A stretch of 64,000 nt of DNA, taken from positions 31,188,001-31,252,000 of the forward strand of contig OZ076409.1 of the NCBI GenBank assembly GCA_964187785.1, written 5' to 3'. Every line of letters starts with the position of its first letter. Position 1 is the first letter of the stretch. Positions 34,929 to 64,000 of this stretch are shown piece by piece. The notes under the pieces were generated by a model. It was not told the DNA's origin. It was given only the letters and a program-made list of their open reading frames with translations, and did not search any database. The position numbers were made by a program, and so were the translations under genes. Source of the stretch: Amphiscolops sp. MND2022 (lineage: Eukaryota).

Positions 34929-35240
34929 CATTACGATACACGTACCGGTAAGCTGCTGTCAGTCAAGCTGCGTAATCTGAGTAAAATGGTAAAATGGTCA
35001 TTCAGCGTAAGTTAGTCAAGACGGTCTATGCTTCAACGGTGTAGCAAAATCAACGCGCGTAATGGAAAATTGTGTAAGTTAGTCAAAACACGTAATTAGA
35101 AAAAAGCGGAAGTTAGTCCAAAAATATTCTTTTTCGTAAGTCAGTCAAAACGTTGACTAACTTCCACTTTTTGCAAATTGAGGGACTCCTATACTTCCGA
35201 AAAGTGGAATGTGGTCAAAGTTTTGACTAACTTACACCAT
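34929..35240 (+). mobile_element. CACTA/EnSpm-like transposon terminus with subterminal repeats (candidate left end of a large element)
   Basis: Begins CATTACGATAC, the same terminal 11 bp as the 2146 MITE, exactly where gag coding stops. AAGTTAGTCAA recurs at ~35009, 35076, 35109, 35138 and inverted at ~35153 and 35223. Confidence 0.6.
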
Positions 35241-35997
35241 CTTTATATGCATTCAAAACTCAGTGTTCATTTTAATTCTAATTCATACCACAGCATCATA
35301 AACCAGTCAAAGTAAACAATGATTCAATAAATAATTAGTTAACATTACTGAGCTCTACCGTGCATAGTACGTATAAACTGCATTCAATGCAAGTTGCACA
35401 CGTGAACACGTGTGTTTCATCCACGCATTTACGTGCAAATAAAATACCTTGTAGCTTCTAATTAGTACAATTGATTGATCTGTGAACAGATTTCCTATTT
35501 TAACAAAACAATTTCAAAGCAGCCCTCATTAATAGTTGCCTAACTAATTTTAATTTTGGTCCCTGTCGTGAGCACAGTCACCGGAATGATTGGTTAACTT
35601 GTTATTTTGGTCTGGGTATTTTGAGCCAGGGTATTGGCAAGGATCTATTTTGATCCCTGTCGTGAGCAACATCAAGAAAAGTTGTAACAAATAATCTATA
35701 CGAAGTTGAAACTTTATCAAACCGAAAACAGTAGTATATGGAATACCGATCTTGAATTATTGAACTAAAAACGAAGTTTGGACCATGTGCCTTATCCTCC
35801 CTCAGATAAATACTGTTTCTTATCCAACAACACCCCCCCCCATCCTTCAATTGGTCAAATGGAAAAGAGGATGAGAGAATTGATTTCAAAATTGAATTAC
35901 TTTGTATCATGGTTAAGCATTAAATTGAATTGAACGTTACATATACGGTACATGTATGTTTTAAAAGTTTATGAATGTGTGCAAAGCAGCGGCAAGT

Positions 35998-36900
35998 GGG
36001 GATGTTGGCGCGGTGGATAAGTCCATCGGATGTGACTGTTAGTCACTGAGTACCACAGGATCGATCCCAGCCATTAGCACACTGGCGAATCGATACATAC
36101 AACTCTTACAAAGATACCCTTCATATTTGGCAGCTCATGTCTCCGAATATTCCACATTGAAGGTATCAGCACCGCTGCAACATCCTTTTTGATGAGAGGA
36201 ACTCCAAGGTTTGACCTTGTTCTGTGCCGCAACTTTGTGTGCCCCACAAATGATGCAATGATGATTGCTAATGATTGCAATGATTAGAGATGGCGAGATA
36301 CTAGTATCCAAATTCTGGCACCCATTCCTGGCTGCCGATGATATTCATAAAACTCTCACAAAGACACCCTTCCTATTCGGCGTCTCATGTTGCCGAATTT
36401 TCCACATTGATGGTATTAACACCGCCGAAATATCCTTTTTGATGAGAGGAACTTTGATGGTGAATTCCCAAATAACATAAGAGCAAATAACATAAAAACG
36501 AAATTAGTTTCAAATAACATAAAAATGAAATGAGTTTGACTAAACATAAAAATAAAGTTGTTTACGAGAAGGTTTTAGCTGTCAAAAGCATTCACAATTC
36601 AAAAGATTCACTCAAAAAAGTATGAAAATTACAAATAAAATTTCGTGAGTTCGATTACTTAACCGGGTATTCGGTTTTATTTTTGTTATTTGAACCTAAT
36701 TTTGTAGTAGTAGTAGTAGTAGTAGTAGTAGTAGTAGTAGTAGTAGTAGTAGTAGTAGTAGTAGTAGTAGTAGAAAATCCCACATTGAAGGTATCAACAC
36801 CGCTGTAACATCCTTGTAGTAGTAGTATTAATAGTAGAAAATCCCACATTGAAGGTATTAACACCGCTGTAACATCCTTGTTGATGAGAGGAACTCTTGA
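35998..36900 (+). mobile_element. tRNA-derived SINE-like element with duplicated body segments
   Basis: A-box-like TGGCGCGGTGG, hairpin GTGAC-TGTTA-GTCAC and B-box-like GGATCGATCCC. The segment ccacattgaaggtatcaacaccgctg...gatgagaggaact recurs at ~36152, 36402, 36779 and 36844. Confidence 0.55.
36704..36773. repeat. (GTA)n microsatellite, ~23 units
   Basis: Perfect trinucleotide run, the same motif as the large TAC tracts but on the opposite strand. Confidence 0.97.
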
Positions 36901-39167
36901 ATGTAAACTTCCTTAAAAAGTTTAGACCGGTCCGATTAACTGTTTAAACTGATTGATTACGCAAAAATAGTGTGAAGAATGTTTGTATCTCAAATTGAGA
37001 TTCTCAATTCCAAACTCTCACTTTGAAAAAAAATTAAATTTATGGTTTCTAGTTTGTATTCAACTTGAATACAACTAGAAACCATCAATTTAATTTTTTT
37101 CAAAGTGAGAGTTTGGAATTGAGATACAAACATTCTTTTTTTGAAATCTTCTGATCTTTTTTTGATACCTGTCGTGAGCTTCAGCAAAAACTGTTCCGAA
37201 AAATTGTTTTTTCGATTAACTGTACTCTTTTGTACGAAAGAAAGGAAAGTAAAGACAAGATTAAAAAGCCATTAGTGTAAAAGTAACCCGCTTTTGAGTT
37301 TTGTAAACGAACGATTTTCATAAATCAGGGAAGTTTACAGAAGTGTAGTTCCAAACTGAACGAACTGTTTCATTCTTTTGTTTACCATTCATCAATCAAA
37401 TTTTAAGTTGTTACAGCTACTCATGGTTTTCTTTAAAGATGCGAATAAGTCCTACCTTATAAGGTAACGAAAGTTTCACTCATCATGAGTGATGATCAGC
37501 TCTCATTTCCTTATAAGGTACGCGCTGTCCCATTTCTCTGAAAAAGCTACCTTATTACCTTATTTGGTCAATACGGTGATTCATCGTTGACGAACAAGCG
37601 TGCGCGTACTACCTTATTTGGTCAGTAAGTGCCTGCTTTAAAGTATTTCAAGTTTGATCGCGGTAAAATTCCAATTAAATTGGCGGTTATCAGATCTTCT
37701 CGAAGAGACCAATTTCCCTTATGAGTAGGCATTGGATTTATTTGGAAATTACAGTAGTAGCAGAAGCATACAAAAAAAAATGGATACCATTTGGTTGATG
37801 GCTGGACAATACGGAAAAAAAATACGGAAGAAGCGTTGAATATGTGAAAGTAAAAACAGTCTTTACTTCTGAGTCAGAAATAAATACTGTTTTTATTTTC
37901 ACATATTCAACGCTTCTTCCGTATTCTGAGAAGTACTGAGATTAGTGATTGTTAATCGTGTCGCTTCTCAGAAACGTCAGTTTAGCTAAGTATTGAATAA
38001 TTTCTATCAAAATAGATATAAACTTATGTAAGGCGAAATATGGAGAAACATGACATTTGGATACAAATAAATCCTAAGCCTACTCATGATTGTTCGCTAT
38101 GGATGAATCAAATGAAGATGTTTGGAATTTGGCAGTCAGAATTTGTAACAGACAGCAATATCATTGACTTGTTGGTAAATATGAACGCCAATGCGAATTC
38201 TAAAATTGATGATTGACACTTCAATAGTGATTCTTTCTCACCACTGTTACAATACGCTTCTGACAGCAGAAAGTGGTTCGCAATACTAGCCCCGAGAAGA
38301 AAAGTTTAGCTCCGAAATTTATCATTACTAGAAAAGCAAAACGGTTGACCGTTGAATCCTCTCCCTTTACAGAAGTTTCAACAGTGTTAGTAGGTAAGAT
38401 ATTGATAGTTTTGTTTCCTTTCCGTAGTATTCAGCTATCTAAAAATTTATTCTCTTCACTAAAAGCTTTAAATATAGTATATCTTCAAACAAACGCCGGT
38501 TTCACCTCCTTTGGAAAAACGAATAATTCTTCTATATTGAATCTGAATCAGTTACTAAGGAACTGGATATAAGTTGAGTCGGACACTTTTCAATGTCCCT
38601 CATATTATCGTCACGGCTGTGATCACGCTCACGGCAGGGACCAAAGTTCAGAAATTTGATTGAGAGTAAAAACATTTATGGTAAACAAGGTAACTCAGTA
38701 ACAAACAAAATCCTGAAATTTGGTCCCTGTCGTGAGCGCAATGTTATTAAACAATTCATTAACTTGTCAGCATAACAACAAATACTGTCTGCCAGACAAC
38801 AGTGGCCGACAATAGTTGACAAATTGTTTAATGCGTAAATTTAATCATTAAATTTACGCATTAAACAATTTATCAATTATTGTCGGCCAGACAGTGATGA
38901 TGAATTGTTTAATGATAAATTGTTTAAACTGAGTTGCAGCTAATTTTGGTCCCTGGTGTAAGCGCCTGATGTAATAAAACGTTCCTATGACTAAAATGAC
39001 TCCGATGACTTCTGATCAAGGAAAACGCTAATTTGAAAATTCCATTTTGTAATTTTTGTATTTATGATACTTTTATTAAAAAAAATGCAATAATCATGAT
39101 CGTAATCATTTGAGGATCACACCATTTGAATATCATGAGAAAAGTTACATGACAAATGAAGTTGAAA

Positions 39168-62325: not shown

Positions 62326-62493
62326 TTGCGTACAGACTGAGTTGTGCTTAAAAAGTTCTCGATCATTGTTAACTTAACATGTAGAACTTTCTTGTCTCCG
62401 AGTTATTTGTTGTGCTCAGTAAGTTGTACACTGTGGCTCGGTATAAACTTGTAGCTTGAAAAACTGCTCTGGATTTTTCGAATGACCGTCAAC

Positions 62494-62853
62494 CAGGGGT
62501 GTTAAATATTGCATTGCAATACTATTGCAATACTAATAAAACAATCTTTTGTTATTCTGAATTTTGTTGAAACAATAATTGCAATTATTGTGTCTATGAA
62601 AAAGATTGTTTGAAAAACCAATCAAATCAATTTGTTGATCAAATTAACAACCGAAAATTGTTCGTTGATCATTATTAGTTTGACTGAAAAGTCCACCAAA
62701 TTGGAAGTATTTGGTACCCAACTCATGTCTCCGAATTCTTTCCTTATTGTGAAAAATCAACAATGTATTGTATTTGATAACGTTCTGAAAATAATTATTG
62801 TTTACAATTTTATTGCAATTATTGTGACCTAGAATAATTTTTTAACACCCCTG
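62494..62853. mobile_element. hAT-type MITE, 360 bp
   Basis: TIR CAGGGGTGTTAAA / TTTAACACCCCTG, with an exact 8-bp TSD CCGTCAAC at 62486-62493 and 62854-62861. Confidence 0.92.
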
Positions 62854-64000
62854 CCGTCAACAACCTGGTATTTTTTGTTCATAGCAAATTCAGCAAAACA
62901 TTCAGCAAATTATTACGGCAAAGTCCAATTACCTCATAGTCTAGTTAAAATCATTATTTTAACTAATAATTTCACGGTAAAAAAATTGTTGTTGACCATT
63001 ATTCAATTATTAGGTTACTATTCATTCAATAAGCTAATGTGTACAATTTACCTTCGATTTATAGTGCATTCAAAGTTTGTACAGCCTTGATCGTTTGTAA
63101 GTTTGTAATGTTCTGAATTGTATCAACTGTGTTTTGGACAATTACTGTCGGAAATGTCGAGTAGTTGTTCCCAAAAAAAGAGGGACATCTACCGTCGGAA
63201 ATATCGGGTGGTTGTTTTCAAAAAAAAATATCAAATACCGTCAAAATCAATCATTGATGGCCGCCGGAAATCATCGGGTCATCGGAAGGGAGTTTCCAAT
63301 TAACTTCGCCTTTGTGCTCCCTTGCATCGTATGTTTTCTCTTTCAGTACATGCCGAGTATGAATAATAGAAGCAAAAGCCTCTTTGTTAAGGAGAAAAAC
63401 AGTGTTTAAGGTTGTTTAAGAATAGAAAAACGGTCAAACGTCCCAATTCAGATTCAGTTGTCTGTAACTTTTTCAATTTTCGTCTGAAAAATTTCAAAGT
63501 TAAACTAATGTAAACTAGAAGAAAATTTAAGAATAGTTTCCTTCTGACAATTTTACAAATTTTCAATCGATTCCGAAAAAATCGAGCCTGAAAATGCTCG
63601 GGGGGTGTTTTCCTAATCACAGTACTAGAGCTCTCAACCAATGAAATGAACATGTGGGCATCAATTAGCCAGTGATATCTACTCGTTCGTTCCGCCGGCG
63701 GCTGCTGTTTTTCAAAAGTTGATAAAAGTACTTCAAGTTGACTCAAGTTTGTTATGTTTGCTATAGACCAAGACTCAAGTTATTTTACTTATTCTTGACT
63801 CAGCTCGGAGAAGCAACATAAATACAGGTGACCTTTTGATCCGTCGTGAGCAAATATAAAACAGAGTTGCTAAACCATATTTTAAGTTAAGTACCAGCTC
63901 TGAGAAACTGTCTCTGTTTTCAACCACAGTATCCTTCTTTTCTTAGGATGTGTTTTCAGAAAGAAAACAACTTTCATTGAATATTGTATTTTGAATACAA

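Follow-up and report, generated by a model that had tools for sequence, protein, structure and literature searches.

The DNA described here is a 64-kb window of contig OZ076409.1 (positions 31,188,001-31,252,000; G000:C1:31188001-31252000) in the 1.07 Gb assembly of Amphiscolops sp. MND2022. Throughout, the window means this whole stretch, and L009:n denotes the position n bases past its right edge. The right-hand side of the window is very probably occupied by one copy of a cut-and-paste DNA transposon that carries a conserved set of accessory genes. We identified genes predicted to encode a transposase, a SET methyltransferase, a JmjC demethylase and a further accessory protein, the last encoded nearest the left end. 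The features are as follows, with coordinates, strand and, where it applies, the basis of the assignment in brackets.

34927-34928, no strand: left copy of the target-site duplication (TSD), CC; the right copy is at L009:6877-6878, outside the window

34929-34950, plus strand: left terminal inverted repeat (TIR), 13 bp perfect CATTACGATACAC, or 22 bp with 2 mismatches against the right end (four other copies begin there)

35007-35235, no strand: left subterminal repeats GTAAGTTAGTCAAAAC, three direct and one inverted (4 matches versus 0.18 expected)

35560-38737: five copies of the motif TCCCTGTCGTGAGC in the left part, at 35560, 35654, 37166, 38627 (minus strand) and 38724 (motif scan)

39168-41175, minus strand: left-hand accessory gene, "Tudor-like" (sequence, splice sites, homologues)

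42972-45309, plus strand: SET methyltransferase gene (upstream exon open reading frames (ORFs) 42972-43942, main exon 44343-45309)

45310-54399, no strand: disruption private to the window copy, consisting of (CTA)173, a nested repeat at about 45830-51718 and a perfect (TAC)894 (comparison with other copies)

55357-58394, plus strand: transposase gene, with a predicted RAG1/Transib-like fold and a C-terminal BRCT (ORFs, homologue alignment, family and fold searches)

58875-62101, plus strand: zinc-finger and JmjC (KDM2/7-like) demethylase gene (seven exon-bearing ORFs)

58875-59150, 59211-59429, 59543-59998, 60208-60384, 60471-60842, 61023-61409 and 61664-62101, plus strand: the ORFs of the JmjC gene (ORFs, homology)

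56315, 56410, 59999, 60130, 61541 (minus strand) and 61596: intronic copies of the motif TCCCTGTCGTGAGC (motif scan)

62102-64000 and on to L009:6876, no strand: start of the right third of the element; beyond the window lie coiled-coil-like ORFs, a RING-finger ORF, a palindrome and the right TIR

The element begins at exactly 34929, where homology to the window starts in 4/4 other full copies, and ends 6,876 bases beyond the window (L009:6876), which is the end point in the same four copies. The termini, CATTACGATACAC ... GTGTATCGTAATG, form the TIR listed above. A 2-bp TSD flanks 7/7 elements: cc, ga, aa, ta and ta in five full copies of the family to which the window copy belongs (family A), tc in a 12.2-kb partner and ta in a copy of a sister family (family B), both described below. 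In at least 12 paralogues of the retroelement (76-87% identity), 14-30 bp separate the sequences that flank the window copy on the left and on the right, and these paralogues are therefore empty sites. The dispersed retroelement begins about 32 kb into the window and the transposon start falls inside it; after the right end the interrupted repeat continues, and 2.7 kb on, the same strand encodes a reverse transcriptase-RNase H domain (E 6.7e-14), in keeping with the transposon having inserted into the 5' part of an LTR (long terminal repeat)-type retroelement. An origin of the copies by segmental duplication was ruled out by the TSDs, the empty sites and the dispersal of the copies.

Four queries were searched against the genome, namely the 617-codon transposase ORF (56541-58394), the SET exon, the JmjC region and the left-hand gene. 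The best 40 matches to each were scored, at 94-100% identity and spread over many chromosomes; the union of the four best-40 lists contains at least 82 distinct loci, and a transposase-exon word in its exact context occurs in at least 129 copies genome-wide. Copy numbers given here are such exact-word counts (129 for the transposase and 965 for a motif treated below), and the candidates of a first-look filter (192-1274) were set aside. At loci picked by the transposase alone, blind 401-bp probes recovered the SET exon at the predicted offset in 18/18 cases, the JmjC gene at the predicted offset in 10/10 probed loci and the left-hand region in 10/10 probed loci, in one case with a shift of 1.7 kb. 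The transposase was accompanied by the SET, JmjC and left-hand genes in all copies probed for them.

These results bear directly on an original prediction, made from the letters of the window, of one mobile unit of more than 29 kb. The single mobile unit is borne out by the TIRs, the 2-bp TSDs, the empty sites and the at least 129 near-identical copies. The right end had been foreseen as ...GTGTATCGTAATG followed by CC, and it was found in that form at L009:6876 with the retroelement repeat resuming after it. On the left, a gag was said to be cut at a CACTA-like terminus; the boundary was exact, but the terminus reads CATTA... and no Pfam match to a gag domain was found in the interrupted retroelement. 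The proposed size was too small for the window copy (35,948 bp) and too large for the family unit (26.7 kb). The prediction also named two outcomes that would speak against it, single-copy host genes and transposase copies without these neighbours; the genes proved to be multi-copy and to stay linked to the transposase.

Uninterrupted copies measure 26,669-26,891 bp, and the window copy owes its 35.9 kb to a second repeat and an expanded microsatellite inside it. As had been proposed for 45.3-54.4 kb, this part is an insertion: the other copies lack it and run from (CTA)n straight into the sequence at 54.3 kb. The insertion lies within the (CTA)n tract that encodes poly-threonine at the SET gene's 3' end. 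The nested piece of about 5.9 kb belongs to another repeat family, with two near-full copies elsewhere at 97% identity and many fragments, and the (TAC)894 tract extends over 2.7 kb with 100% matches. The window copy also has a private 1-bp deletion in the transposase gene (56099), and it is dead, with the 3' end of SET disrupted and this private frameshift in the transposase. Pairwise substitutions among four full copies amount to 0.68-0.82%, and the burst of the family was therefore recent.

A 12,245-bp element without a long ORF (L027+L028, G000:C6:48611841-48624145; TSD tc) has only its ends, about 775 bp and about 750 bp, in common with the 26.7-kb element. A spacing of about 12.24 kb was found for 13/19 paired ends among the matches listed in two best-40 lists. 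This element is a non-coding partner mobilised in trans; since it shares only the termini, trans-mobilisation happens.

Several further observations concern individual copies and their surroundings. Private to the window copy are a 30-bp tandem duplication where the JmjC gene starts (58874-58933) and an extra segment of about 196 bp (L009:1278-1475) that resembles sequence of the 12.2-kb partner. In a sub-variant of family A (L002, L005, L008), the transposase intron has lost 38 bp and about 360 bp have been inserted between the transposase and JmjC genes. About 81.8 kb downstream of the window copy (from G000:C1:31304208 onward), its left flank occurs again (99% identical) with the left-hand gene and SET exon after it, whereas its right flank is unique; this arrangement looks like a segmental duplication that followed the insertion. 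A satellite array with a 178-bp unit (higher-order 355-357 bp) occupies about 25 kb (window 6179-31490) and abuts the retroelement that received the insertion. Near the right terminus, 23 bp in from the end, there is a perfect 24-bp palindrome, GAACTAGCAGGATCCTGCTAGTTC (L009:6830-6853), which is kept in 5/5 copies. No nonamer like that of recombination signal sequences (RSS) was seen at 12 or 23 bp from the terminus on inspection by eye.

The transposase gene comprises an N-terminal ORF (55357-55700; homologues align from 55359), a second stretch (55700-56199) that bears the first catalytic D motif, VDIYGD, a canonical intron (56200-56567, GTGAGT...CAG) and a 617-aa exon (56568-58394). The N-terminal region is separated from the catalytic part by a -1 frame break at CAG-TTTTT-C (window 55698-55706). 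This break is present in 12/12 fetched family A copies and in 100/100 family A copies listed, none of which has a T run of 4, 6 or 7. It could be explained by programmed frameshifting, by a founder mutation or by trans-mobilisation.

In a library of 1.84 billion proteins, 349 relatives of the transposase were detected at E<=1e-3. All 10 relative clusters examined come from metagenome or run assemblies, and 0/10 has a functional name. A Pfam scan of the transposase and its relatives identified no family except a weak C-terminal BRCT (for the window transposase, BRCT_2 at 22 bits versus a cut-off of 27.3). The BRCT was detected at E<=0.015 in 9/18 family members scanned (7/17 in one scan, plus P0003 and P0001), and three more gave E 0.03-0.09.

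The structure of a family member, P0040, was modelled with AlphaFold2 (AF2) from a 55-sequence alignment including the window exon, giving a mean predicted local distance difference test score (pLDDT) of 82 and a predicted template modelling score (pTM) of 0.80. With this model, the top 46 Foldseek matches are all RAG1, BbRAGL or HzTransib (best E 2.4e-6), and VIA aligned about 415 residues at Z 12-14.2 with a root-mean-square deviation of 3.6-4 Å, spanning model residues 157-726 versus RAG1 460-1007. An independent fold search of 48,161 chains again placed RAG1/RAGL first (Z 12.1-13.2; BbRAGL Z 12.1), with the P element transposase at Z 7.8 and Hermes at Z 6.8; HzTransib scored Z 9.8-12.8 across the fold searches (9.8 in the independent search). 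Model residues 770-900 have a BRCT fold, matched by the BRCTs of XRCC1, 53BP1, MDC1 and ligase IV at Z 8-10.6. The near-invariant residues of the family are D263/D267 in the first strand, G353-D354 after the fourth strand, C.CPD461..H464 and E672/E675/H679, and the window transposase has all of the conserved D..GD, GD, D(2)H and E..E...H residues. As judged from the model, the transposase is RAG1-like in fold.

The main exon of the SET gene encodes a conserved N-terminal region and a KMT5A-like SET domain, and its ORF continues into the poly-Thr-coding (CTA)n. The domain was recognised by Pfam (E 2.9e-10, 40.9 bits versus a cut-off of 22.4), and its closest solved relative is KMT5A/SETD8 (1.1e-6). 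The GRGV and ELCFDY motifs are kept, whereas the NH motif reads NY; this NY is invariant in 12 SET relatives at 48-98% identity, in which the N-terminal region is also conserved. Relatives at 48-57% identity retain the N-terminal region and all SET motifs and form multi-member clusters. The predicted structure of the SET protein (pLDDT 42) was too poor for a fold search.

Two core exon ORFs of the JmjC gene match KDM2A (E 9.5e-10 and 3.3e-4) and also align with PHF8 and KDM7, and the HxD motif, the 2-oxoglutarate lysine and the distal histidine are all aligned with those of KDM2A. Since the domain is divided among exons, the Pfam JmjC score of a single exon (19.5 bits) stays under the cut-off of 24. 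The zinc fingers ahead of the JmjC domain are weak (zf-C2H2, E 0.012).

The left-hand gene has an ATG near 41175, a first exon extending to 41068, an intron at 41067-40867 (GT..AG, 201 nt) and the remainder in ORFs 40186-40866 and 39168-39899, with homologues at 54-98% identity. Its spliced N-terminus shows, by eye, a Tudor-like sequence pattern split by the canonical GT..AG intron. No Tudor match was obtained from Pfam at E<=10 (the ORFs and the read-through P0177), from PDB sequence searches or from the ESM Atlas; with both large ORFs the Atlas returned nothing usable, or scores of 0.81 to unnamed phage clusters.

Taken together, the accessory set appears, from these sequence comparisons, to consist of a KMT5A-like SET protein, a KDM2/7-like JmjC protein with an intact Fe(II)/2-oxoglutarate site and a third conserved protein with a Tudor-like N-terminus. 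The element probably also encodes a RING-finger protein, in an ORF near the right end (L009:5437-5664, minus strand; 21.5 bits versus a Pfam cut-off of 27). In a metagenome locus, a distant transposase relative is followed, about 800 bp downstream, by a convergent RING-finger gene (zf-RING_2, E 2.7e-7; L034:4036-4512, minus strand). This RING gene is 35% identical to the element's RING ORF over 55 aa, and is the one RING neighbour among 14 such loci, most of which are too short.

The gene assignments of the original prediction fared unevenly. The DDE transposase with BRCT is borne out by both the family search and the fold, and its likeness to RAG1 holds for the fold although the family is not Transib proper, given the 2-bp TSD and the CAT... 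terminus. For the gene called zinc finger and JmjC, the JmjC part was upheld by the KDM2A matches and iron-binding residues and the zinc fingers stayed weak. For the gene called recombinase-like and SET, the SET domain is clear and nothing was found for the recombinase-like part (Pfam to E<=10 on the ORFs upstream of SET gave only chance-level matches). For the supposed Tudor/chromo-barrel gene, the intron-split Tudor-like pattern stands, with no support from hidden Markov models, PDB sequences or the Atlas.

Family B was found by a genome search with a SET relative, P0187 (54% identity), and one copy was fetched. The search returned at least 12 loci at 89-96%, three at 73-82%, a further group at about 60%, and the family A copies at 50-53%. 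The family B copy is 25,037 bp long, with a TSD of ta and the TIR CATTACGATACAT, in which 12/13 positions are identical to family A. It contains the same four genes, the JmjC gene having moved to the left end in inverted orientation. Compared with family A, the amino-acid sequences are 66% identical for the transposase, 49% for JmjC, 57% for the left gene and 46% for the upstream exons of SET, and all seven JmjC ORFs have counterparts at 29-58% identity. Nucleotide similarity is limited to two stretches of 165-225 bp. The non-synonymous divergence (dN) between the families is 0.26-0.48 (0.34 for the left gene), and synonymous sites are saturated, so that the synonymous divergence (dS) by the NG86 method is undefined. 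Family B retains the iron-binding residues of JmjC, the D..GD of the transposase and the Tudor-like exon 1, and its transposase lacks the frame break, a single 423-aa ORF covering the N-terminus and core. A RING was not found in this copy with the family A query.

Because the same four genes occur in a family this diverged, with synonymous sites saturated, the cargo is old and under selection, a conserved module of the transposon lineage rather than a chance capture. Selection is visible between the families only. SET copies about 60% identical to P0187 (e.g., C4:23228851, C11:44647360 and C12:55241664) suggest that this genome harbours no fewer than three families of the lineage. Elsewhere, in public assemblies, two pairs of SET-like and left-gene relatives have longest contigs of identical length (98,796; 314,538), which hints at linkage there too.

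A number of points weigh against the stretch being a transposon with a RAG1-like transposase and a maintained accessory gene set. The gene models are predictions from ORFs, GT..AG sites and homology. Differences between recent family A copies and the window copy are mostly non-synonymous and look neutral. Family A may lack a full transposase made by ordinary translation, because the frame break is in every copy examined and there is none in family B. The fold was taken from a metagenomic relative that is 30% identical to the 617-aa window exon (BLAST E 2e-80), not from the window's own spliced protein, and phmmer searches with the transposase and searches with the family profile gave no match to RAG1 or another transposase among PDB sequences. 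At the 14 metagenome loci with transposase relatives (1.1-6.7 kb, with little flank), no SET, JmjC or left-gene neighbour was found. The catalytic activity of SET is uncertain, because its NH motif reads NY family-wide. The zinc-binding motifs said to unite the wider transposase clade to which we assign the family, C(2)C and H(3-4)H, are not clearly conserved: CxC is partial (18/35 and 23/35 sequences) beside the invariant D(2)H, and there is no H(3-4)H pair, with H669 and H679 conserved around E672/E675 in the transposase family alignment.

Reading the stretch as a cut-and-paste transposon with a maintained gene set, we propose that the transposase would bind the CATTACGATACAC termini, excise the element and re-insert it with a 2-bp staggered cut, as the termini and footprints indicate. 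The accessory proteins may then act on nucleosomes to the element's benefit.

One tentative possibility is that they counter silencing: JmjC would strip marks of the H3K9me2/H3K27me2 type, and SET and the reader would set a permissive state on the element's own copies, targeted by a repeated DNA motif. The JmjC protein is nearest to KDM2A, PHF8 and KDM7 with its active site intact, and its gene contains zinc-finger-like ORFs. There are precedents for epigenetic accessory genes in DNA transposons, in VANDAL elements with VANC, in fungal TET/JBP transposons and, as a SET histone methyltransferase, in HarbingerS and MuDR families of Phytophthora (all as given in the available part of PMC12730594, which cites the last). 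A motif of the kind required is dispersed over introns and subterminal regions, as the original prediction of one motif common to the non-coding regions had it: the 14-bp core TCCCTGTCGTGAGC occurs 11 times in the window (<=1 mismatch), always inside the element, versus 0 expected, and an 18-mer form occurs 965 times genome-wide versus 0 for a reversed control. However, this motif is specific to family A and absent from the family B copy despite the same genes. KMT5A, the closest SET relative, writes H4K20me1, which is not an obvious anti-silencing mark. The proposal also draws on sequence, from which the substrate cannot be read.

It is somewhat doubtful that family A is non-autonomous in practice, with a founder frameshift and a burst for which a sister family with near-identical termini supplied the transposase in trans. 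The frame break in 100/100 copies listed, the continuous 423-aa ORF of family B over the same region, the agreement of the TIRs at 12/13 positions and a non-coding 12.2-kb partner that has family A termini only (13/19 paired ends listed) all point in this direction. On the other hand, the remaining transposase residues and ORFs are intact in most family A copies, at least 129 copies stand against about 12 family B loci listed, and a programmed -1 shift or downstream initiation would explain the break equally well.

The hairpin ends that result from RAG-type cutting require end joining, and KMT5A, through H4K20me, recruits 53BP1 by way of its Tudor domains. A role of the accessory genes in break repair, in which the SET writer, JmjC eraser, Tudor-like reader, RING ligase and BRCT would mimic or steer a 53BP1-type chromatin pathway at excision and integration breaks, is the other leading idea beside anti-silencing, though a rather unlikely one. 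It would account for a BRCT that is conserved across the transposase family, including distant relatives, and folds like those of XRCC1, 53BP1 and ligase IV, for KMT5A as the best solved relative of SET, and for the RING ORF at the right end and the RING gene adjoining one distant transposase relative. Its basis, however, is domain identities alone; the Tudor is a sequence pattern, the RING scores 21.5 versus 27 bits and has no counterpart found in family B with the family A query, and the nearest relative of JmjC, KDM2A, is an H3K36 enzyme. The remaining probability for the accessory proteins goes to other functions or to none.

A more ambitious combination of these ideas is improbable, namely an undescribed RAG1-fold lineage with a BRCT-fused transposase and a 2-bp stagger, an obligatory writer, eraser, Tudor-like and RING module that sets chromatin or repair at its own sites, and a programmed -1 frameshift as in bacterial insertion sequences.

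Very improbable is a status of the SET, JmjC and left-hand genes as passengers, host copies captured by chance as in Pack-MULEs and useless to the element. Large DNA transposons do take up host genes (PMC6431247 and PMC12477816, in the text available), and changes in recent copies are not biased to synonymous sites, but the same four genes persist in the sister family after nucleotide similarity has been lost apart from the two short stretches. Open frames, splice structure and catalytic residues have been kept at dN 0.26-0.48 with dS saturated, and SET relatives at 48-57% identity keep every motif in multi-member clusters.

Membership of the Transib superfamily proper is extremely unlikely: the best structural matches are RAG1, BbRAGL and HzTransib, but the TSD is 2 bp, not 5 bp, in 7/7 elements, the terminus is CAT... 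whereas the CAC of Transib and RSS is invariant (available part of PMC1131882), there is no sequence-level match to RAG1, and the three PDB fold-search lists hold no EnSpm, Mirage or Chapaev structure, so RAG1 is the best available match for any member of the wider clade.

With the stretch read as a transposon with a maintained gene set, the family adds a well-populated branch to the relatives of RAG1, with 349 detectable members and no Pfam model, and its 2-bp cut geometry and repair-type BRCT bear on the diversification of the RAG/Transib fold. It is a DNA transposon that keeps a predicted histone methyltransferase and demethylase together over deep divergence and in many young copies. The manipulation of histone marks by a transposon thereby becomes testable, with defined proteins, DNA ends and many natural insertions, and the young 26.7-kb family and its 12.2-kb non-coding partner form a candidate active system for cut-and-paste of large cargo. 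A literature search that did not cover Repbase Reports found no description of a JmjC gene in a DNA transposon or of a BRCT-bearing RAG1-like transposase.

Among known systems, Transib and RAG1 (BbRAGL, HzTransib) share with this family the DDE fold of the whole core (Z 12-14, about 415 residues), cut-and-paste movement and TIRs starting with CA. Transib has a 5-bp TSD and a TIR that starts with the CAC of a CACAATG-like heptamer (PMC1131882, in the part available), in contrast to the 2-bp TSD here and to CATTACG in place of CAC(A/G)(A/G)TG. Also unlike Transib and RAG1 are the C-terminal BRCT, the lack of a RAG2-like partner among the genes seen, the absence of sequence-level similarity and the size of 25-27 kb with at least four intron-containing genes.

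The features fit the broad EnSpm/Mirage/Chapaev/Transib ("CMCT") group rather than Transib proper, and the element agreed with none of the named families available for comparison. This clade comprises EnSpm/CACTA, Mirage, Chapaev, Transib, Plavaka and ESTA as well as Lanisha, and is described as having CA..TG termini, TSDs of 2-5 bp and the C(2)C and H(3-4)H motifs (PMC12730594, available text). The 5'-CA..TG-3' termini, a TSD within 2-5 bp and a RAG1-like transposase are common to that description and to the family, as is an epigenetic enzyme, TET/JBP in the fungal members and SET and JmjC here. Subterminal repeats, large size and several spliced genes are further likenesses to the clade and to EnSpm, and differences are the BRCT fusion, a cargo of histone enzymes in place of TET/JBP and the absence of any Pfam domain of the EnSpm-type transposase. 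EnSpm/CACTA proper was considered and rejected (CACTA termini and a 3-bp TSD versus CATTA... and 2 bp here). Mirage elements have a 2-bp TSD, and the TSD length here agrees with that.

The HarbingerS and MuDR elements of Phytophthora are likewise DNA transposons with a SET gene, but they belong to other transposase superfamilies and have a single chromatin gene, and the available part of PMC12730594 reports neither JmjC nor a conserved multi-gene set for them. VANDAL21 (MuDR) with VANC, and Sola1 and other algal elements with a ParB-DNA methyltransferase (PMC12477816, in the text available), also have accessory proteins thought to act on their own epigenetic state; these proteins and transposases are unrelated to those described here, and they concern DNA methylation, not enzymes of histone lysine methylation.

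In size class and multi-gene content, the family resembles giant transposons such as the 16-20 kb EnSpm elements of Chondrus with 4-5 ORFs, KDZ, Teratorn and Starships (PMC6431247). No set of SET and JmjC is described in the available part of that source, and most of these elements depend on other mobilising enzymes (tyrosine recombinase, piggyBac, KDZ), whereas the Chondrus EnSpm elements belong to the same wider clade as the family described here.

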